Below are positions 19,722 through 34,035 of a stretch of DNA of 64,000 bases, in pieces. Positions within the stretch are counted from its first letter, which is position 1. Each line of letters opens with the position of its first letter. The stretch is from contig CAWFFN010000005.1 in the NCBI GenBank assembly GCA_963815115.1, positions 256,001-320,000 on the forward strand. The letters are read 5' to 3'. Below the pieces are notes generated by a model that was not told the DNA's origin, did no database searches, and saw only the letters and a list, made by a program, of their open reading frames with translations. The position numbers and the translations under genes were made by a program. This DNA comes from an uncultured delta proteobacterium (GTDB lineage: Bacteria > Desulfobacterota > Binatia > DP-6).

Positions 19722-20669
19722 GTGCCGCTCTCCGATGATGCCGGCGTGTCCGCTCCGGTGGTCGAGTGCCGTGCCCTCACCAAGCGCTACGGCGAGCGTC
19801 TGGCGGTCGAAGGCGTGAGCTTCCACGTCGACGCCGGGGAATGCCTCGGGCTGCTGGGTCCGAACGGCGCCGGGAAGACGACGACCATCCGCATGCTCAC
19901 GGGATTCGCGGTGCCGAGCGCGGGAGACGTCCGGGTGCTGGGCCTTCCCGTCTCGCCCACGACGCTCGGCACCATCAAGGCGCGCCTCGGCATCGTGTCG
20001 CAGGAGGACAGCCTCGACCCGGATCTGAGCGTCGAGAAGAACCTGCTGGTCTACGCCAGCTACTTCGGCATCCCGCGCCGGGAAGCCGCACGGCGGGCCG
20101 ACGAGCTGATCCGCTTTGCCGAGCTGGGCGACCACCGCCGGGACACCATCAAGGAGCTCTCCGGGGGCATGCGGCGCCGGCTGATGCTGGCGCGGGCGCT
20201 GCTGAACGAGCCGAGCCTGCTGATCCTCGACGAGCCGACGACGGGGCTCGATCCGCAAGCGCGGCGGCTGGTCTGGGAGCGCATCCGCACGCTCCAGCGG
20301 GGTGGCACCACCATCCTGCTGACGACCCACTACATGGAGGAGGCCGCGCAGCTCTGCGACCGCCTCATCATCATGGACGGCGGCCGGATCGTCGCCGAGG
20401 GCGATGCGGACGAGCTGATCGCGAGCCGGGTCGGCAGCGAGGTGGTCGAGATCCATCTTCCCGAGGGGGCCGACGCGGAGGACGTCGTGGCGCGGCTCGG
20501 GCGCGGTCCCTGGCGCAGCGAGCGCGCGGGACGCATGCTCTACCTCTACCTGCGCGACGGCCACGGCGACGAGCTGCTGCGCCAGCTCGACGGCCTCGAC
20601 GTCGGCCGTCGCCGGGCCACGCTCGAGGACGTCTTCCTGACGCTCACCGGGCACACGCTGCGGGAGTGA
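19722..20669 (+). CDS. ABC exporter ATP-binding subunit (NodI-like)
   Basis: GPNGAGKTT, LSGGMRRR, LDEPTTGLDP, TTHYMEEA. Confidence 0.92.
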   Translation: MPLSDDAGVSAPVVECRALTKRYGERLAVEGVSFHVDAGECLGLLGPNGAGKTTTIRMLTGFAVPSAGDVRVLGLPVSPTTLGTIKARLGIVSQEDSLDPDLSVEKNLLVYASYFGIPRREAARRADELIRFAELGDHRRDTIKELSGGMRRRLMLARALLNEPSLLILDEPTTGLDPQARRLVWERIRTLQRGGTTILLTTHYMEEAAQLCDRLIIMDGGRIVAEGDADELIASRVGSEVVEIHLPEGADAEDVVARLGRGPWRSERAGRMLYLYLRDGHGDELLRQLDGLDVGRRRATLEDVFLTLTGHTLRE

Positions 20670-20674
20670 CGCCC

Positions 20675-21436
20675 ATGTGGCCCGGCGTCGGCGCGCTGCG
20701 GGTGTGGCGGCGGAACATCGAGGTGTGGAAGCGCTTCTGGCGGCCGTTCCTGGTCGCGTCGCTCGGCAATCCCATCTTCTACCTGGTCTCGATCGGCTAC
20801 GGGCTCGGCCGCTTCGTCGCCGACATCGACGGGATGCCCTACGTCGTGTTCCTGACCCCGGGCATCCTCGCCTCGTCGGCGATGAACAGCGCGTCCTTCG
20901 AGATCACCTTCGGCTCCCTCACCCGGCTGCAGGAGCAGAACACGTACACGGCGATCCTGGCGACGCCGTGCTCGGTCGCGGACATCGTCGCCGGCGACAT
21001 CCTCTTCGCGGCGACGAAGAGCGTCGTCTCGGTCTTCTTCGTGCTGCTGGTGACGGCGCTCGCCGGGCTCCTCCCGAGCTCGCTCTCGATCGTCACGCTG
21101 CCCGTGGCGCTCCTCGCGGGGCTCGCCTTCGCCAGCCTCGGCATGGTCGCCACCGCCACCGCCCGGTCGTACAGCTTCTTCGACTACTACTTCACGCTCG
21201 GCATCTCGGTGATGCTCTTCTTCTGCGGCGTCTTCTTCCCGCTCACGAGCCTCCCCGGTTGGGCGCAGACGCTGGCGTGGTTCCTGCCGCTGACCCACGC
21301 CGTGCGCCTCAACCGGGCGCTGGTGGCGGGGGCGCCGACCGTCTCGCTGCTCGGCGACGCGTGCTGGCTGGCGGTCGCGGTCGTCGGGGGCTTCGTCGTC
21401 GCCGAGCGGCTGATCAGGCGCCGGCTGATCCTGTGA
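20675..21436 (+). CDS. ABC-2 type permease (NodJ-like)
   Basis: About 6 hydrophobic helices, FLTPGIL, GVFFP, PLTHAV. Confidence 0.9.
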   Translation: MWPGVGALRVWRRNIEVWKRFWRPFLVASLGNPIFYLVSIGYGLGRFVADIDGMPYVVFLTPGILASSAMNSASFEITFGSLTRLQEQNTYTAILATPCSVADIVAGDILFAATKSVVSVFFVLLVTALAGLLPSSLSIVTLPVALLAGLAFASLGMVATATARSYSFFDYYFTLGISVMLFFCGVFFPLTSLPGWAQTLAWFLPLTHAVRLNRALVAGAPTVSLLGDACWLAVAVVGGFVVAERLIRRRLIL

Positions 21437-21554
21437 GCGCCGTGCGCTCACCGGCATGTACGGCGGCGCCGGAATGAAGGTGCCCCATCCCGGGCCCCGG
21501 TTCCCTTCGGGGGCCGCCGTTCCGGGCCCTGCCACGGGCGGGTCCACCTTGTTC
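21433..21554. other. Structured intergenic element (three stem-loops, one with a C(UUCG)G tetraloop)
   Basis: GTGAGCGC/GCGCTCAC; AAGGTG/CACCTT enclosing GGGCCC/GGGCCC and CCC-TTCG-GGG. Confidence 0.5.
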
Positions 21555-21587
21555 AACTAAATGCCAGAAGGTATGACTCAGGTATGA
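21549..21587 (+). promoter_or_regulatory. Sigma70-like promoter of the TA operon with AGGTATGA direct repeats (putative operator)
   Basis: TTGTTC-N17-TATGAC, 6 nt before ATG; AGGTATGA occurs twice, 11 nt apart. Confidence 0.55.
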
Positions 21588-21832
21588 AGCAGAACGCGAA
21601 GTCGAGCATCACGCTCCCACCGAGCGAGCTCCGCCTGGTGACGACCCTGAAGGAGCGCCTGGGACTGAAGAGCAACGTCGACGTGGTACGCCGTGGGTTG
21701 CGCCTCCTGCGCGAGGACACCGATCGTCGCGCGTTGCGCGACGCGTACCGCAAGGCGTCACGCGCCACCCGGGCGGGGCTGATGGTCGAACTCGAGGCCC
21801 TCGACCACCTCGGCGACGAGGGGCTCGAGTGA
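21584..21832 (+). CDS. Putative ribbon-helix-helix antitoxin
   Basis: 82 aa, SSITLP...SNVDVVRRGL; overlaps the toxin start (GTGA). Confidence 0.75.
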   Translation: MKQNAKSSITLPPSELRLVTTLKERLGLKSNVDVVRRGLRLLREDTDRRALRDAYRKASRATRAGLMVELEALDHLGDEGLE

Positions 21833-22176
21833 CCCTCCCGGTCTCCACCGGCGTTCTGTACGCAGCAGATCTGAATCCGGCTCGCGGCACCGAGGCGGGA
21901 AAGGTACGGCCCGTCCTCGTCGTGCAGACGGATCTTCTCAACGTCGCAGCGCACCCCTCGACCGTCGTCCTGCCCTGCACGACCCGGCTCACTGGGGAAA
22001 GCCTACTTCGCGTGGTGCTCCCACGAGGTATTGCCGGCAACCGAGCGGAGTGCGAGGTGATGATCGACCAGGTGCGTGCAGTGGACAATCGCCGGCTCCG
22101 GAGGGCCCTCGGGAAAGTCCCCGCCCTCGTCCTGAGCGAGGTTCGGGAGAAGCTGCGCCGGCTGCTCGACCTGTAG
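21829..22176 (+). CDS. mazF: PemK/MazF family toxin
   Basis: ADLNPARGTEAGKVRPVLVVQTD...DQVRAVD..RL. Confidence 0.92.
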   Translation: MTLPVSTGVLYAADLNPARGTEAGKVRPVLVVQTDLLNVAAHPSTVVLPCTTRLTGESLLRVVLPRGIAGNRAECEVMIDQVRAVDNRRLRRALGKVPALVLSEVREKLRRLLDL

Positions 22177-22314
22177 ATTGAGCCGGTCCGCCCGTCCCGT
22201 CGCGCTCGAGGTACTGCCAACTTACCCCACCAGTGGCGGCCTCCACCGCCTCCCGGCCGCGGCGGAGATTCACTGCGGCCGCGCCCGAAAGACGAGGAGG
22301 GGGCGTTCACGCCC

Positions 22315-22836
22315 TCAGACCAGCAGATTCCGCTGCTCGCCGGTGCCGGCGCGCTCGTGCGCCAGGAGCCAGCGCTTGCGGTGCACGCCCCCGGCGTAGC
22401 CCGACAGCCGTCCGTCGGACGCGATGACGCGGTGGCAGGGGACCGCGATGGCGATGGGATTGGCGCCGTTCGCTGCGCCGACCGCGCGGGCGGCGGTGGG
22501 GTCGCCGATCCGGCGGGCGAGCGTCAGGTAGGAGATGGTCTCGCCGGCCGGGATCTCGCGCAGGGCATCCCACACCCGGCGCTGGAACGGTGTCCCGCCG
22601 GCATCGAGGGGGATGGCGTCGAGCGCGTGCAGGTCGCCCGCGAAGTATGCCGCGAGCCGCCCGCACACGCCGGCGGGGTCGCGGGGACGGAACTCGAGCG
22701 CGCCGAAGCGTTGCGCCAGCAGGGGATGGCGATGCGGCCAGCGCTCGCGGAACTCGAGCGCGCACACGGCTCCGGCGCGCATGGCGACCATGATCTTGCC
22801 GATGGGAGACGGAAACTCCGCCAAGTCGAGCGTCAT
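22315..22836 (-). CDS. ogt: Methylated-DNA--protein-cysteine methyltransferase
   Basis: SPIG, GTPFQRRVW, ARAVG.ANG.NP, active-site PCHRV. Confidence 0.93.
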   Translation of the reverse strand: MTLDLAEFPSPIGKIMVAMRAGAVCALEFRERWPHRHPLLAQRFGALEFRPRDPAGVCGRLAAYFAGDLHALDAIPLDAGGTPFQRRVWDALREIPAGETISYLTLARRIGDPTAARAVGAANGANPIAIAVPCHRVIASDGRLSGYAGGVHRKRWLLAHERAGTGEQRNLLV

Positions 22837-22871
22837 TCTTCCTCCGTTGCCGGTCGAGCCGGCCTGGTCCG

Positions 22872-23441
22872 TCAGTCGATCATCCCGGACCGGCTCGCGA
22901 TCGCATGCACGCGAAAGAGCCGCTCCGGGGTCCGCCCCGGCATCACGAGCGGCGCGGCGCGGCGAAACCGCACCGCGAGACCGCCCGCGCTGCCGCGCAC
23001 CGCGCCGCTCACGAGAATCTCTCCGGCGAGCGCCCGCCCGGCGATGCGCGCCGCGACGTTGACGTCGTGGCCGATGAGGTCGCCGTCGCGCGCGCGAGCC
23101 GAGCCGTCGTGGATCCCGATGCGCAGCGACACGCGGCGCGCCGCGCGTTGCATCTCGAGCGCGGCCCGCAGCGCGGGTGCCGGCGTGGAGAAGACGGCCA
23201 TGATGCCGTCGCCGAGGCGCTTCAGGATGCGACCCGAGTGGGTCCGGATGGCGGGCAGGACCGCGGCGTCGTGCTGCCGTACCAGGCGGAGCGCCGCCCG
23301 GTCGCCACGCTCGGCGACGCACGCCGTGAAGCCCGCGATGTCGGTGAAGAGCACCGTGAGGCGGCCGCGGCGGGGCAGGCGGACGGGGAAAAGCGTCGCC
23401 AGCCACTCGATGCCGGCGATGGGGTCGACCAGGGTATCCAT
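22872..23441 (-). CDS. Stand-alone class III adenylate cyclase domain protein
   Basis: LFTDIAGFT, KRLGDG, RIGIH, GDLIG.DVNVAAR; catalytic Asp/Asp/Asn/Arg and ATP-specifying Lys/Asp are present. Confidence 0.88.
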   Translation of the reverse strand: MDTLVDPIAGIEWLATLFPVRLPRRGRLTVLFTDIAGFTACVAERGDRAALRLVRQHDAAVLPAIRTHSGRILKRLGDGIMAVFSTPAPALRAALEMQRAARRVSLRIGIHDGSARARDGDLIGHDVNVAARIAGRALAGEILVSGAVRGSAGGLAVRFRRAAPLVMPGRTPERLFRVHAIASRSGMID

Positions 23442-23458
23442 CGGGCCTGTCCTCCGAC

Positions 23459-23535
23459 CCTACGACACCCGGGGATGGCAGAACGTGAAATGGCGCCGGT
23501 GAATTTCACGTTCGATTCGGGCGGGGTGTTAAAGG
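23459..23535. promoter_or_regulatory. Back-to-back pair of matching ECF-type promoters (ATTTCACGTTC-N11-GGTGTY-NN-AGG)
   Basis: Perfect 11-bp inverted repeat GAACGTGAAAT (23481-23491) / ATTTCACGTTC (23503-23513), each arm followed outward at the same distance by GGTGT(T/C). Confidence 0.75.
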
Positions 23536-23542
23536 AGCGGGG

Positions 23543-24034
23543 ATGAGTCCGCCTTCCGCCTCGCTGGCCGAGCTCACGACGCGCCATCGCAACGAGATCG
23601 TGGCGTATCTCGTCCGCATGCTGGGCGACCGCCAGGAGGCCGAGGACGCCTGTCAGGACGCGTTCCTGCGCGCGCACCGGGCCCTCGCCCGCCTCGGGCC
23701 GGGCGCCAACTCGCGTGCCTGGCTCTATCGAATCGCGACCCGGAGCGCCCTGAACGCCCTGCGCCGCCGCTCGCGACGAGCGGCCCGGGCGGCGGACGTC
23801 GATCCCGACGCGTTGCCGGCGAACCCCGGCCCGACACCCGAGCAGCGCGAGCAGCTGCTCGCGCTCCACCGGGCGGTCGATCGGCTGCCCCCGCGCCAGC
23901 GGGCGGCGCTGATGCTCCGGCAGTTCCAGGGGCTCGGGTACGCCGAGGTCGCCGCCACGCTCGGCGGTACCGAGCAGAGCGCGCGTGCCAACGTCTATCA
24001 GGCGCTGAAGAAGTATCCGGGCGTCCCTGGGTGA
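23543..24034 (+). CDS. ECF RNA polymerase sigma factor
   Basis: AEDACQDAFLRA, RAWLYRIA (region 2); LPPRQRAALML..GLGYAEVA (region 4). Confidence 0.93.
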   Translation: MSPPSASLAELTTRHRNEIVAYLVRMLGDRQEAEDACQDAFLRAHRALARLGPGANSRAWLYRIATRSALNALRRRSRRAARAADVDPDALPANPGPTPEQREQLLALHRAVDRLPPRQRAALMLRQFQGLGYAEVAATLGGTEQSARANVYQALKKYPGVPG

Positions 24035-24055
24035 CGCGCAGGAGGTATCACGACC

Positions 24056-24733
24056 ATGACCACGCACGACGACGAGCTGATCGGCATGCTGCTCGGCGAC
24101 CACCGGCGGTCGGCCGACCTGGCGAGCTGGCTCGCGACGCCGGAAGGGCGCCACGAGCTGGCGGCTTACCGCCGGACGCTCGGAGGACTCGAGCGGCTCT
24201 ACGGGGACGTCCTCGGCCGGCGCACCGTCTACTACACTGCCGTCCAGGCGCCGATCGGCCGGGTGTTCGTGGCAGTGAGCGACGGGGGGCTGGTGCGCGT
24301 CTCGTTCCGGAGCAACGAGGCCGCGTTCGTGCACGACCTCCGGCACCAGCTCGATGCGGACGTCGTGCGCTCGCCGGAGCGCACCGCGGACGTCGTGCAC
24401 CAGCTACGGGCCTACTTCACCGGCGAGCGGCGGCGCTTCGACATGCGTCTCGACCTGCGACACGTCACTCCCTTCCAGCGCCGCGTGCTCCTGGCGGCGG
24501 CGCGCGTGCCGGCCGGGAAGCTCGTCTCCTACGGCGAGATCGCACGGCGCATCGGGGAGCCCCGGGGCAGCCGGGCGGTCGGCCAGGCGCTCGGGCACAA
24601 CCCGATCCCCATCGTGATCCCGTGCCATCGGGTGGTGGCTGCAGGCGGACGCATCGGTGGATACACCGGCGGTCTCGCCATCAAGCGCAAGCTGCTGCGG
24701 CTCGAAGGGTCGCTCGCGGCGGTTGCGGGTTGA
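24056..24733 (+). CDS. ogt: Ogt-family alkyltransferase with N-terminal anti-sigma-like extension
   Basis: C-terminal TPFQRRV, SRAVG.ALG.NP, PCHRV; about 50 extra N-terminal residues; AGGAGG RBS. Confidence 0.9.
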   Translation: MTTHDDELIGMLLGDHRRSADLASWLATPEGRHELAAYRRTLGGLERLYGDVLGRRTVYYTAVQAPIGRVFVAVSDGGLVRVSFRSNEAAFVHDLRHQLDADVVRSPERTADVVHQLRAYFTGERRRFDMRLDLRHVTPFQRRVLLAAARVPAGKLVSYGEIARRIGEPRGSRAVGQALGHNPIPIVIPCHRVVAAGGRIGGYTGGLAIKRKLLRLEGSLAAVAG

Positions 24734-24797
24734 GCCGGCGACAGGAGCGGGCGACCCGGTTGACCACCGCGGGCGGCGAGGGCTAGGGAACTCGCCC

Positions 24798-25346
24798 ATG
24801 CCTCGCGCCCTCCTGGTCCCGCTTGCCGTCGCCCTGATGTCCGCGCCGGCCGGCGCCCAGATGGTGCGCTCCGAAGCCGCGGGCCTGCGCTTCAGCGTGC
24901 CCGGCGTGTGGACCCGCGTTCCCGCGCCCTCCGACATGAGGGCGGCGCAGTTCCGGGTGCCGCACAGCGGAAGCGACGGCGAGGACGCGGAGCTGGTCCT
25001 GTTCTACTTCGGGAAGGGCCAGGGCGGCAGCCCGGAGCAGAACGTCGACCGCTGGACCGGCCAGTTCACGCGGCCGGACGGCAAGCCGGCGAAGGACGAG
25101 GCGGTGGTCACGATCCGCACCGTCAACGGGCTCAAGCAGACCTCGGTCGACGTCTCGGGGACCTACAAGCCGATGCCGATGGGGGGCGGAAACGGAGCGG
25201 ACAAACCCGGCTGGCGGCTTCTGGCCGCGGTGATCGAGGGACCGGGCGGTCCCTGGTTCTGGCGCCTCACGGGACCGGAGACCACGGTGGGCGCGGCGAA
25301 GCCGCAGCTCGACGCGCTCCTCGCCTCTCTCGAGGCGCATCAGTAG
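24798..25346 (+). CDS. Hypothetical secreted protein
   Basis: Signal peptide; MRAAQF, GQGG...NVDRW..QF, GPWF.RLTGP pattern. Confidence 0.75.
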   Translation: MPRALLVPLAVALMSAPAGAQMVRSEAAGLRFSVPGVWTRVPAPSDMRAAQFRVPHSGSDGEDAELVLFYFGKGQGGSPEQNVDRWTGQFTRPDGKPAKDEAVVTIRTVNGLKQTSVDVSGTYKPMPMGGGNGADKPGWRLLAAVIEGPGGPWFWRLTGPETTVGAAKPQLDALLASLEAHQ

Positions 25347-25358
25347 GCGCGCGTTCCG

Positions 25359-26519
25359 TCAGACCGGCCGCGCCCGCAGGCGCGCCGCGATGGCGTCGTC
25401 CAAGGCGGCGTCGATCGCCGTCCAGGCGAGCGCCAGCGCGCCATCCAGGAGGGCACGATCGGCGGGCGGCGTGATGCAGTGAGCCGCGAACTCGGGCTGG
25501 TGGTTGACGGCCGGGAGCGATGCGACTCCGATCATCGGGTGGATCGCCGGCAGCGCATGCGAGACGTTGCCCATGTCGGTCGACGCCGCGAAGCGCGTGA
25601 ACTCGGGACGGGGCGTCACGAACCTGCGACCGAGCGCCTCGGCGTTCGCCTGGTAGAGGGCCGCCAGCGCGCCGTCGTGCCGCACCTCGGCGTACACCGG
25701 CGGCGAGTCGTCGATGCGGAGCGAGCACCCCGTCGCGAGGGCGCCCGCCTCGAAGCAGCGCAGCACCTTCGTCTTGATGTCGCCCAGCTCGGCGAGCGAG
25801 CGGGCGCGCACGTAGTACCGTGCCGTCGTGTGCGCGGGCACCACGTTCGGAGCCTCGCCGCCGCGTGTGACGATGCCGTGCACGCGATCGGTCGGACGGA
25901 TGTGCTGGCGCAGGAGCCCGATCGCCGACTGGGCGACCACCAGGGCGTCGGCGGCGTTCACGCCGAGCTCGGGAGCGGCGGAGGCGTGCGACGCCTTGCC
26001 GTGGAAGTGGGCCTCGAACTCGGCGAAGGCCAGGGTGGGCGGCTCGAGCATGTCGAGGGGCGCGGGGTGCGCCATCATCGCCGCGTGCACGCCGGCGAAT
26101 GCGCCGCGCTCGAGCAACAGGATCTTCCCGCCGCCGCTCTCCTCGGCCGGCGTGCCGACGACGCTCACGGTGAGGCCGACGTCGTCGGCCACCCGGGCCG
26201 CCGCCAGACCGGCTCCCACGGCGAGCGCCGCGATCAGATTGTGGCCGCAGGCATGGCCGATGTCGGGGAGGGCGTCGTACTCCGCGCAGATGGCGACGTG
26301 CAGCGGTCCCGAGCCGGCGCGGGCAACGAACGCGGTGGGGATGTCGCAGACGCCGCGCTCGACCCGGAAGCCGGCGGCGTCGAGCGCGTCGGCCAGCCAG
26401 CCCGCGGCGTGCTCCTCCTCGAAGGCGAGCTCGGGCCGAGCGTGGATGCGGCGGCTGAGTGCGAGCAGGTCGCCCTCGCTGGCGGCCAGGCTCTCGCGGG
26501 CGCCGTCCTTGACGTTCAT
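25359..26519 (-). CDS. M20 family metallopeptidase/amidohydrolase
   Basis: IHARPELAFEE, EYDALP..GHACGHN, GTPAEE, STDMGNVS. Confidence 0.92.
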   Translation of the reverse strand: MNVKDGARESLAASEGDLLALSRRIHARPELAFEEEHAAGWLADALDAAGFRVERGVCDIPTAFVARAGSGPLHVAICAEYDALPDIGHACGHNLIAALAVGAGLAAARVADDVGLTVSVVGTPAEESGGGKILLLERGAFAGVHAAMMAHPAPLDMLEPPTLAFAEFEAHFHGKASHASAAPELGVNAADALVVAQSAIGLLRQHIRPTDRVHGIVTRGGEAPNVVPAHTTARYYVRARSLAELGDIKTKVLRCFEAGALATGCSLRIDDSPPVYAEVRHDGALAALYQANAEALGRRFVTPRPEFTRFAASTDMGNVSHALPAIHPMIGVASLPAVNHQPEFAAHCITPPADRALLDGALALAWTAIDAALDDAIAARLRARPV

Positions 26520-32640: not shown

Positions 32641-34035
32641 ATGCCGTCGTCCTCCGATCCGTTCGCCCCCTTCGCCGAGAAGCTCGCGCGCGCCGAGCAG
32701 CCCGGGTTGCTGATCGAGGTGTTCCGCCGTCAGTACGAGCGGCTGCGCGCCGGCGAGACCGGCAAGGTCTCGGCAGCGGAGATCGACGCGGTCGCCGGCG
32801 TCCCCGACGCCGCCGGCATGGCCCGTCATCGCGCCGCGGGGCTGGCGGCGCTCGATCGGGCCGTGGTCGTCAAGCTGAACGGCGGCCTCGGCACCACCAT
32901 GGGCCTCACGCAGGCGAAGTCGCTGCTGCCGGTGAAGGGCGATCTCACGTTCCTCGACATCATCGTCCGTCAGGTCCTGCACCTGCGCGCCGCCAATCGG
33001 GTGCGGCTGCCCCTGGTCCTGATGAACAGCTTCCGGACGCGCGACGACTCCGCCCGCGTGCTCGCGCGCTACCCCGACCTGGCGAGCGCCGGTCCCGCGG
33101 ACTTCCTGCAGCACAAGGTGCCGCGCATCCTCGCCGCGGACTCGAGTCCGGTGTCGTGGCCGCGCCAGCCCGAGTACGAGTGGTGCCCGCCCGGCCACGG
33201 GGACATCTACGCCGCGCTCCAGACCTCGGGCGTGCTCGCGACGCTGCTCGACGCCGGCATCCGGTGGGCCTTCGTCTCGAACGCCGACAACCTGGGGGCC
33301 GTGATGGATCCCGACATCCTCGGCTGGATCGCGACCGAGCGCGTGCCGTTCGTGATGGAGGTGTGCGACCGGTCCGAGGCCGATCGCAAGGGCGGGCATC
33401 TGGCTCGCCGCAAGGACGGCCGCCTGATGCTGCGCGAGTTCAGCCAGTGCCCCGACGACGAGATCGAGTCCTTCCAGGACATCGCGCGCTACCGCTACTT
33501 CAATACCAACAGCCTGTGGGTCGATCTGCGCGCGCTGGCGGACGTGCTGCGCGCGACGCAGGGCATCCTCGACCTGCCCCTCATCGTCAACCGCAAGCCG
33601 GTCGATCCCGACGATCCATCGTCGCCCCAGGTCGTGCAGCTCGAGACCGCGATGGGCGCGGGGATCGCCCTCTTCGAGGGCGCCAGCGCGCTGCACGTGT
33701 CGCGCGAGCGCTTCGTGCCGGTGAAGTCGGCGAGCGATCTGCTGGCCCTGTGGTCCGACGCGTACGAGGTGACGGACGACTTCCGCATCGTGGTCTCGCC
33801 GCGGCGCGCGGCGGCGGATCTCGTCGTCGACCTCGACCCGAAGCACTTCCGGCAGGTCGGCGACCTGCGCACGCGCTTTCCCGAGGGCGCGCCGTCCCTG
33901 GTCAGGGCGCGGCGCTTCGTGGTGCGAGGCGACGTGCGCTTCGGGGGCGGGGTGGTGGTGGACGGGGACGTCGAGGTGGCCCAGTCCGGTCCGCAGCCGC
34001 TGGTCGTGCCGTCCGGCAGCCGGCTCGCCGGATGA
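32641..34035 (+). CDS. UTP--glucose-1-phosphate uridylyltransferase (eukaryotic-type UDPGP family)
   Basis: KLNGGLGTTMG, LMNSF, WCPPGHGD, SNADNLGA, KGG, FNTN, QLETAMG, RFVPVK. Confidence 0.93.
   Translation: MPSSSDPFAPFAEKLARAEQPGLLIEVFRRQYERLRAGETGKVSAAEIDAVAGVPDAAGMARHRAAGLAALDRAVVVKLNGGLGTTMGLTQAKSLLPVKGDLTFLDIIVRQVLHLRAANRVRLPLVLMNSFRTRDDSARVLARYPDLASAGPADFLQHKVPRILAADSSPVSWPRQPEYEWCPPGHGDIYAALQTSGVLATLLDAGIRWAFVSNADNLGAVMDPDILGWIATERVPFVMEVCDRSEADRKGGHLARRKDGRLMLREFSQCPDDEIESFQDIARYRYFNTNSLWVDLRALADVLRATQGILDLPLIVNRKPVDPDDPSSPQVVQLETAMGAGIALFEGASALHVSRERFVPVKSASDLLALWSDAYEVTDDFRIVVSPRRAAADLVVDLDPKHFRQVGDLRTRFPEGAPSLVRARRFVVRGDVRFGGGVVVDGDVEVAQSGPQPLVVPSGSRLAG

Follow-up and report, generated by a model that had tools for sequence, protein, structure and literature searches.

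What holds an extracytoplasmic function (ECF) sigma factor in check when the gene that follows its own encodes a DNA-repair enzyme? The question is raised by a four-gene locus in a stretch of 64,000 nucleotides, the whole of which we call the window, from an uncultured delta proteobacterium (Desulfobacterota, Binatia, DP-6; assembly GCA_963815115.1, contig CAWFFN010000005.1, positions 256,001 to 320,000 of the forward strand). In this DNA of approximately 71% G+C an ECF sigma gene is followed by the gene of an O6-alkylguanine-DNA alkyltransferase (Ogt or AGT), named here Ogt2, which carries an N-terminal extension that we refer to as the head. Facing this pair is an operon for a minimal nucleotidyl cyclase and a second, stand-alone enzyme, Ogt1. 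The candidate that we put forward as inhibitor of the sigma factor is Ogt2 itself. Below, G000 denotes the genome to which the window belongs and the other G and L numbers the genomes and loci with which it was compared; the coordinates of the module are given in Table 1.

In the mechanism proposed, the sigma factor would transcribe its own operon (sigma and ogt2) and the divergent cyclase-ogt1 operon from back-to-back TTTCAC-N16-GTGT(T/C) promoters. Ogt2 would be the cognate anti-sigma factor, using a head of 57 residues and three helices, a putative zinc-less descendant of a zinc anti-sigma domain, to hold the sigma. On meeting O6-alkylguanine the Ogt2 body would take the alkyl group onto Cys190, and the spent protein would be destabilised or degraded to free the sigma. 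More sigma, more sensor, the second, plain repair Ogt and the minimal cyclase would then be produced, with the level of the cyclase set by transcription. Binding of the sigma, its release on alkylation, the nucleotide made by the cyclase and the reader of that nucleotide are the parts that we infer. As a joint account, an alkylation module under an ECF122-like sigma with an Ogt2 anti-sigma factor inactivated by self-alkylation, this is a serious but tentative proposal, to which we assign slightly less than an even chance.

A preliminary description, made from the sequence alone, had listed an ogt gene, a cyclase, an ECF sigma factor and an Ogt with an N-terminal extension. All four genes are present where it placed them, with support from Pfam, and the intact PCHRV that it reported can be read in both Ogt sequences. 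The sigma factor matches PF04542 (64.2 bits, residues 13-79) and PF08281 (54.1 bits, residues 106-157), and scores 87.8 bits against TIGR02937, where the cut-off is 42.9; with regions 2 and 4 only it is an ECF, or group 4, protein. Ogt1 scores 124.8 bits with PF01035 and 119.3 bits with TIGR00589 and aligns with the E. coli-type Ogt model over positions 34-166 of 171. Its start codon is the ATG at 22836, with GGAGG just upstream.

The pairing of sigma factor and Ogt extends well beyond the window. When the sigma protein was searched against 40 relatives, orthologs sharing 56-75% identity were found in seven other genomes of the family, and the Ogt takes the +1 position in all 13 of the relatives' loci that have one. 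With Ogt2 as the query an ECF sigma gene lies directly upstream in 17 of the best 80 loci, the labels of these distant records being Chloroflexi, Anaerolineae, Syntrophobacter, Acidobacteria, Actinomycetota/Solirubrobacterales and Methylomirabilota. The window sigma shares 30-37% identity with those of Actinobacteria-labelled loci. ECF-ogt adjacency had previously been mentioned as something noted in other bacteria. The pairing does exist, but it is more than an anecdote, since two published groups, ECF122 and ECF203, are defined by it. The characteristic feature of ECF122, a 6-O-methylguanine DNA methyltransferase at +1, is found in the window.

Is there anything in Ogt2 that would make it an anti-sigma factor? 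Its position is appropriate, directly downstream of its own ECF sigma gene with no terminator-like site in the region; a scan of 21500-25500 for sigma-70 promoters and intrinsic terminators returned neither promoter-like nor terminator-like sites. We assembled 30 sigma-linked Ogts, 17 from the distant loci and 13 from the relatives' genomes, and in every one the enzyme is preceded by an extension, of 36-92 residues. The Ogt start codon overlaps the sigma stop codon in 23 of the 30 pairs; in the window ogt2 begins 21 nt past it. The extension of 64 unlinked Ogts was estimated as an upper bound, from the most upstream in-frame start. Seven have no upstream start, 37 have room for fewer than 30 residues and five for 30-35. 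The remaining 15, some of them fusions of another kind with hundreds of residues, could accommodate at least 36.

In certain relatives the extension is recognisable. A zinc head, C...H-x3-C-x2-C, is present in L079, L091, L092 and L094, which represent class-level relatives and a same-genus genome, and in L013. The zf-HC2 model matches the heads of L092 (25.0 bits) and L079 (22.3 bits) above its cut-off of 22.2 bits, and that of L094 below it (16.6 bits). The heads of L091 and L013 match only if the extension is scanned alone, and five of the 12 members of the extension alignment give a match. Alignment of the window-type head with the zinc-type heads of the relatives using hhalign gives a probability of 74.5% and an E-value of 2.7e-5 over 46 columns, and the two align column for column. 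The anti-sigma-like N-terminus perceived in the preliminary description is probably homologous to the zinc anti-sigma domains of relatives. The columns that hold the zinc ligands, one histidine and two cysteines, are occupied in the window head by Trp25, Pro29 and Arg32. This type of head occurs in only ten protein clusters at 90% identity, all of them Ogts of 224-231 residues. Differences among seven family heads number 246, 326 and 430 at codon positions 1, 2 and 3, respectively, a pattern that fits a translated, fast-evolving segment.

The AlphaFold2 model of whole Ogt2 has a pLDDT of 92.4 and places helices in the head at residues 5-12, 20-26 and 29-48; modelled alone, the head has a pLDDT of 77. 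In the VIA all-against-all structural comparison of the head with 48,161 representative chains, RsiW is ranked second (Z 5.4), RslA 17th (Z 4.0), RskA 26th (Z 3.7) and PupR 38th (Z 3.6), with a chain from the AlgU-MucA complex entry fourth (Z 4.7) and one from the sigmaE-RseA complex entry 21st (Z 3.8). The output names no chains, and we take the short chains at ranks 4 and 21 to be the anti-sigma partners. If so, the anti-sigma class fills six of the top 38 matches. It is the recurrence of the class among the top ranks of this comparison of models, not any single Z value, that carries weight. Ten matches of the head sequence profile to the Protein Data Bank (PDB) include RslA (E 0.095), ChrR (0.16), DdvA (0.7) and RsiW (1.1).

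Several of these details weigh against an anti-sigma role for the head. That of the window lacks all three zinc ligands and so has no H-x3-C-x2-C motif; nor does it have the fourth helix found ahead of the enzyme in zinc-type relatives. The head alone has no Pfam match, and Foldseek with the 60-residue head found no match, the best E-value being 4.2. The hhalign probability is no higher than 74.5%, the VIA Z values of 3.6-5.4 are in a range common for helical models, and solved anti-sigma factors are matched weakly in sequence, at E-values of 0.095 or worse.

Such observations invite an explanation in which Ogt2 is a mere co-transcribed target that does not inhibit the sigma, with a head that serves in oligomerisation or in tethering to the transcription machinery, and a sigma factor controlled transcriptionally or by an unlinked factor. 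It would account for a window head with no family match of its own and with weak structural and sequence matches to anti-sigma domains, and it agrees with the published classification, in which the entries for ECF122 and ECF203 assign no anti-sigma factor (PMC7826278). It does not account for an extension that is found in 30 of 30 sigma-linked Ogts when most unlinked ones have room for fewer than 30 residues, nor for zf-HC2 matches above the cut-off at the same position in relatives. Moreover, the +1 position with overlapping stop and start codons is the usual place of an anti-sigma gene in ECF systems. We judge the co-transcribed target to be unlikely and Ogt2 likely to be an anti-sigma factor, with binding to the sigma a prediction from sequence comparison.

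If Ogt2 does restrain the sigma factor then what might release it? The body of the protein appears to be a complete alkyltransferase. It matches PF02870 (36.6 bits, residues 58-134) and PF01035 (114.2 bits, residues 139-218), and Foldseek ranks M. tuberculosis OGT first among the matches to its model (E 2.3e-14, TM-score 0.83), so that Ogt2 has the two-domain Ogt/AGT fold together with the PCHR acceptor site. This PCHR is invariant in 28 of 28 aligned sigma-linked Ogts, and the alkyl-acceptor site is intact as had been claimed. Also invariant are Asn182, Tyr159, Arg173 and Glu217 (window numbering), core residues with presumed roles like those described in the AGT literature. Cys190 is the sole cysteine of Ogt2; therefore any thiol-based input to this protein must pass via the alkyl acceptor.

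Some relatives carry a second acceptor. In six sigma-linked Ogts (L079 and L090-L094) an Ada_Zn_binding domain is added at the C-terminus, with scores of 29-47 bits in five of them and of 18.2 bits, short of the cut-off of 23, in L079; the C-x3-C...C-x2-C pattern is retained in all six. Four of the six (L079, L091, L092 and L094) have the zinc head as well, while L090 and L093 have short heads without the zinc motif. Ogt2 of the window has no C-terminal Ada zinc domain. The combination of extension, Ogt and Ada zinc domain is common in metagenomes, where it is annotated merely as methyltransferase. A search with the L092 protein gave 1249 proteins in total at E <= 1e-10, plain Ogts included. 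The 120 clusters (90% identity) among the matches listed share 56-100% identity with L092 over at least 89% of the length, and of these 118 have a precomputed PF02805 and five a PF13490 assignment. Close homologues of a protein from a same-genus relative are labelled Candidatus Binatia or Deltaproteobacteria.

It is conceivable that Ogt2 is an anti-sigma factor for which alkylation of Cys190 is not the signal, release being due to proteolysis, another stress or a partner switch, and the body being a repair enzyme that is simply made at the same time. The arguments from position, coupling and the anti-sigma-like head speak for an anti-sigma role and say nothing of the trigger, and the zinc heads of relatives could sense thiol oxidants or electrophiles, as reported for RsrA-type factors (PMC3177212). 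Nevertheless, the window Ogt2 has no zinc ligands and its only cysteine is the alkyl acceptor, the active site does not vary among the 28 sequences aligned, a second domain that accepts alkyl groups, the Ada zinc domain, is present in relatives, and the target operon carries ogt and alkA. A trigger other than alkylation seems to us improbable. Given an anti-sigma role for Ogt2, self-alkylation as the trigger is reasonable and we incline slightly towards it. A more exacting version, possible though doubtful, would have Ogt2 as a one-shot anti-sigma factor: each O6-alkylguanine repaired would irreversibly spend one inhibitor and free one sigma, so that lesions are counted stoichiometrically. The answer to damage would comprise fresh sensor, the second Ogt (joined in one relative by AlkA) and a second messenger of the cyclic-nucleotide kind that would relay the damage signal to further targets. 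Such an adaptive response would depend on sigma release in place of an Ada-type activator and would run beside the canonical Ada.

Which genes would the freed sigma transcribe? The spacer between cyclase and sigma genes (23442-23542) is 101 bp and contains a perfect 11-nt inverted repeat, ATTTCACGTTC at 23503-23513 on the forward strand and at 23481-23491 on the reverse, which bears out the two mirror-image copies of one promoter-like motif originally described there. Matches to ATTTCACGTTC with at most one mismatch number three in the window against a shuffle mean of 0.23, and none of 100 shuffles reached three. The third, a near-match at 32942, was set aside as it lies inside a coding sequence. 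We read the mirrored motif as a pair of promoters, of a kind that is conserved ahead of the sigma genes of this clade. The window promoters read TTTCAC-N16-GTGT(T/C), with the ATG of the cyclase 21 nt and that of the sigma 11 nt after the respective -10 box. Upstream of the sigma, T(T/C)TCAC-N15/16-GTGTTA is present in all eight orthologous loci, the window included, the spacer bases being unconserved. On the side of the divergent gene, family loci have a mirrored copy, TTTCAC-N15/16-G(T/C)GT(T/C), and the equivalent of the cyclase-facing site precedes the cyclase orthologs in L083, L084, L086, L087 and L088.

The distance from one -35 box to the other is far from constant. It is 0 nt in L088 (GTGAAATTTCAC), the boxes abut in L083, L084 and L086, and the distance is 13 nt in the window, about 25 nt in L082 and about 150 nt in L087, where an insertion able to form a hairpin lies between the boxes. 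Despite this, each box keeps its own -10 element at 15-16 nt. Because the box distance varies while each -35/-10 spacing is fixed, we read the sites as two independent promoters and not as a dimeric operator. Being a perfect palindrome of 11 nt that lies between divergent genes, one of them for a cyclase, the repeat could be viewed as the operator of a dimeric transcription factor, such as a cyclic-nucleotide receptor feeding back on the cyclase, but this is very improbable since the half-site distance ranges from 0 to about 150 nt among orthologs with the GTGT box constantly 15-16 nt away, single unpaired copies of the motif occur upstream of the sigma in loci without a divergent gene, and the spacing presumably does not fit the CRP consensus; a CRP-type operator was rejected as half-site spacing is variable among loci.

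More distant loci provide a further comparison. Of 25 non-redundant sigma-Ogt loci, a set that left out the window, L089 (a duplicate of L010) and L048 (a near-duplicate of L045), 22 have a single copy of a generalised motif, YYYCAC-N16-18-[GTC]GT[TC], no more than 70 nt from the start of the sigma gene. No match was found upstream of the sigma in L013, L058 and L093. The density of this motif is 12.05 per kb upstream of the sigma compared to 0.134 per kb elsewhere in the same loci, counting both strands. The window form, TTTCAC / GTGTTA, and that in Actinobacteria-labelled loci, (T/C)CTCAC / CGTT, are both similar but not identical to the published ECF122 motif. A position weight matrix (PWM) built from 15 family sites and scanned over the whole 6.9-Mb genome ranks the sigma-facing site first and the cyclase-facing site third. 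The second-ranked site (C9:468266) was discarded as a regulon member since it is inside the gene for a Cys-rich secreted protein. With ranks 1 and 3 being the window sites and rank 2 intragenic, the predicted regulon in this genome consists of two operons only. We caution that the PWM was trained on, and the generalised motif derived from, these same sites and loci, which makes the ranks and the enrichment partly circular. Loose regular-expression scans of the genome gave 17-20 scattered matches and were uninformative. The assignment of the two sites as promoters of this sigma clade, made by comparing sequences, is nonetheless well supported.

The gap from the -10 box to the sigma ATG is 11-15 nt in seven family orthologs and 1-28 nt in more distant loci. 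From these short distances a leaderless or nearly leaderless sigma mRNA is predicted for the family, and the AAGGAG ahead of the window sigma ATG may be outside the mRNA. No RNA data set was listed as containing this DNA, and in the eight DNA data sets that do contain it the shares are small, 0.17 at most. Two family loci show rearrangement in this region. In L087 (G013) the two promoters are parted by about 110 nt of inserted sequence, which has long inverted arms and may be a small repeat element, and in L082 (G009) about 24 nt are duplicated in tandem, so that the GTGTTA box and the region of the sigma start codon occur twice.

The cyclase is a catalytic domain alone; its PF00211 score is 45.4 bits, where the cut-off is 21.9. 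Among solved structures its nearest relative is Ma1120 (4wp3_A; E 2.1e-25 over residues 20-177). The motifs FTD34, KRLGDG (Lys74 and Asp78) and GH..N.A.R (Asn126-x3-Arg130) are conserved in eight orthologs, so the residues that mark a class III cyclase are in place, and they align with those of Ma1120 except that an alanine there corresponds to Asn126. We presume the metal-binding, substrate and transition-state roles usually given to these residues. As there is no sensor domain, transcription by this sigma factor is the obvious means of control.

Orthologs of the cyclase (E <= 1e-35) are found in eight of 25 family genomes. The gene is divergent from the sigma ortholog in all seven for which the contig can be viewed; in the eighth it is cut by the contig end. 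Taken from the side of the sigma, a cyclase operon faces it in seven of the eight family genomes with a sigma ortholog. The survey of the four-gene layout and its motif suggested in the preliminary description thus shows that the layout recurs in the family, and orthologous loci with the same arrangement in other genomes mean that it is not unique to this contig. The content of the divergent operon is cyclase-ogt in G000, G020, G024, G008 and G013, cyclase-alkA-ogt in G009 (L103 2058-3511; AlkA_N 133 bits with HhH-GPD), and cyclase alone in G001, while G007 has no cyclase and in its place a SnoaL-like gene (L085 928-1467, reverse strand; PF12680 61.8 bits). An ogt is therefore carried by six of the eight. 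L103 of G009 is the closest ortholog locus. Despite the replacement of the cyclase, L085 keeps the sigma-Ogt pair and the mirrored promoter. A point against the cyclase as an integral part of the response is its absence from G007 and from all 80 distant Ogt loci; the latter indicates a family-level addition to an older sigma-Ogt core.

How does the module relate to Ada? Genome scans with PF02805 and PF12833 confirm that the window has neither an Ada zinc domain nor an AraC-type helix-turn-helix (HTH). The single PF02805 match of the genome is on contig C7, and all 15 of its PF12833 matches lie outside C5:256001-320000. The combination that defines Ada, a Cys4 zinc domain with an AraC-type HTH, is thus lacking from the module. 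The label of an Ada-independent response accordingly holds for the module itself but not for the organism, as a canonical Ada_Zn-HTH_18-AlkA_N protein is encoded elsewhere (G000:C7:153247; L101 1048-2952). The presence of that regulator also tells against our proposal, in that an adaptive response can be accounted for without the module, which is best seen as a parallel alkylation circuit, not an Ada replacement. A third PF01035 gene of the genome is at C12:510949.

Table 1. Module features, with positions numbered along the window; functions are those predicted from sequence.
Feature	Position	Strand	Description
ogt1	22315-22836	-	173 aa; second gene of the divergent operon; stand-alone O6-alkylguanine-DNA alkyltransferase with PCHRV active site
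Minimal class III nucleotidyl cyclase	22872-23441	-	189 aa; catalytic domain alone (PF00211); first gene of the divergent operon
Promoter-like site facing cyclase	23463-23490	-	-35 TTTCAC 23490-23485, 16-nt spacer, -10 GTGTCG 23468-23463
Promoter-like site facing sigma gene	23504-23531	+	-35 TTTCAC 23504-23509, 16-nt spacer, -10 GTGTTA 23526-23531
ECF (group 4) sigma factor, ECF122-like	23543-24034	+	163 aa; PF04542 and PF08281
ogt2	24056-24733	+	225 aa; head of about 57 aa, PF02870 and PF01035, PCHRV
ogt2 N-terminal extension (head)	24056-24226	+	residues 1-57; three helices; zinc-less anti-sigma-like domain
ogt2 alkyltransferase body	24227-24733	+	ribonuclease-like domain and DNA-binding/active-site domain; acceptor Cys190

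The genes around the module are of other kinds. Convergent with ogt1 is a probable toxin pair (21584-22176), in which a MazF/PemK-type toxin gene (21829-22176, forward strand; PF02452 80.6 bits) is preceded, with a 4-nt overlap, by a small open reading frame (21584-21832, forward strand) that has no Pfam match and is probably the antitoxin. Further upstream (19722-21477, forward strand) the translations indicate an ABC-transporter ATPase and permease, and downstream (25359-26519, reverse strand) there is an M20 peptidase (PF01546/PF07687); both flanks are seemingly unrelated to the module. The gene that follows ogt2 (24798-25346), for a secreted protein of 182 residues, has no Pfam match and no counterpart in the 19 other relatives' loci (L082-L100), and was for the latter reason excluded as a module member.

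The sigma-Ogt core is already catalogued, as ECF122 and ECF203, and the mechanism is unexplained in the literature. New here are the N-terminal extension on all sigma-linked Ogts, the zinc anti-sigma head and Ada zinc domain in relatives, the probable zinc-less homologue in the window, and the facing cyclase-repair operon with mirrored promoters. A neighbouring alkyltransferase acting as anti-sigma factor would be a concrete and testable answer to the control of both groups, and the locus supplies a promoter, a two-promoter regulon and a series of natural variants (zinc head, zinc-less head, with or without the Ada zinc domain). If true, the proposal would represent a second bacterial route from DNA alkylation to gene expression and a rare example of a sensor that is both irreversible and stoichiometric. 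It would also couple alkylation damage to cyclic-nucleotide signalling, through the close linkage with a cyclase that has no sensor domain. In open-access papers and bioRxiv we found no paper on an Ogt as anti-sigma factor nor on a link between a cyclase and alkylation, and the word "sigma" is nowhere in the text of a 2023 alkyltransferase review (PMC10779285).

Comparisons with characterised systems help to place the module. The nearest is ECF122, described in the supplement of Casas-Pastor et al. (2021, NAR, PMC7826278) as having a 6-O-methylguanine DNA methyltransferase at +1, with a proposed role in DNA-damage repair. In that entry the group is 100% Actinobacteria with "no putative AS factors" and a predicted autoregulatory promoter of CTCAC (-35) and CGTCTAC (-10), and a 2022 review lists it under "unknown mechanism" (PMC8999054). 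The window clade shares the methyltransferase at +1, and its promoter, T(T/C)TCAC / GTGTTA(C/A/G), resembles CTCAC / CGTCTAC without being identical to it. It differs from the entry in the range of the pairing, which is found as well under the labels Chloroflexi, Anaerolineae, Acidobacteria, Methylomirabilota and Syntrophobacter, in the anti-sigma-like head on the Ogt and in the divergent cyclase-ogt operon with a second copy of the promoter. In the ECF203 entry of the same supplement the gene at +1 is that of an O6-methylguanine methyltransferase, Ada_Zn_binding and TetR proteins are encoded nearby, and TetR is suggested as the regulator, with no anti-sigma factor. The Ada_Zn_binding neighbourhood matches the zinc-head/Ogt/Ada-zinc fusions of L079 and L090-L094, whereas the window Ogt2 has no Ada zinc domain and the regulator suggested for ECF203 is a TetR repressor.

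With the zinc anti-sigma factors RsrA, RslA, ChrR and RsiW the module would have in common an N-terminal helical anti-sigma domain encoded right after an ECF sigma. In RsrA a covalent change at cysteine is the release signal, according to PMC3177212. The window head, in contrast, has no H-x3-C-x2-C motif, and the proposed sensing cysteine is in a fused suicide DNA-repair enzyme that would receive an irreversible alkyl group from DNA. The likeness to E. coli Ada, as presented in the 2023 review (PMC10779285), is that a self-alkylated repair protein would turn alkylation into transcription of ogt/alkA-type genes and of the sensor. The difference is that the window has no AraC HTH or Ada zinc domain, the output would be via sigma release instead of DNA binding, and a cyclase is part of that output. 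Finally, Ma1120 of Mycobacterium avium (PDB code 4wp3) is, like the window cyclase, a stand-alone class III catalytic domain without a sensor domain; the window enzyme is distinguished by being embedded in an alkylation-repair operon that would be under ECF control.

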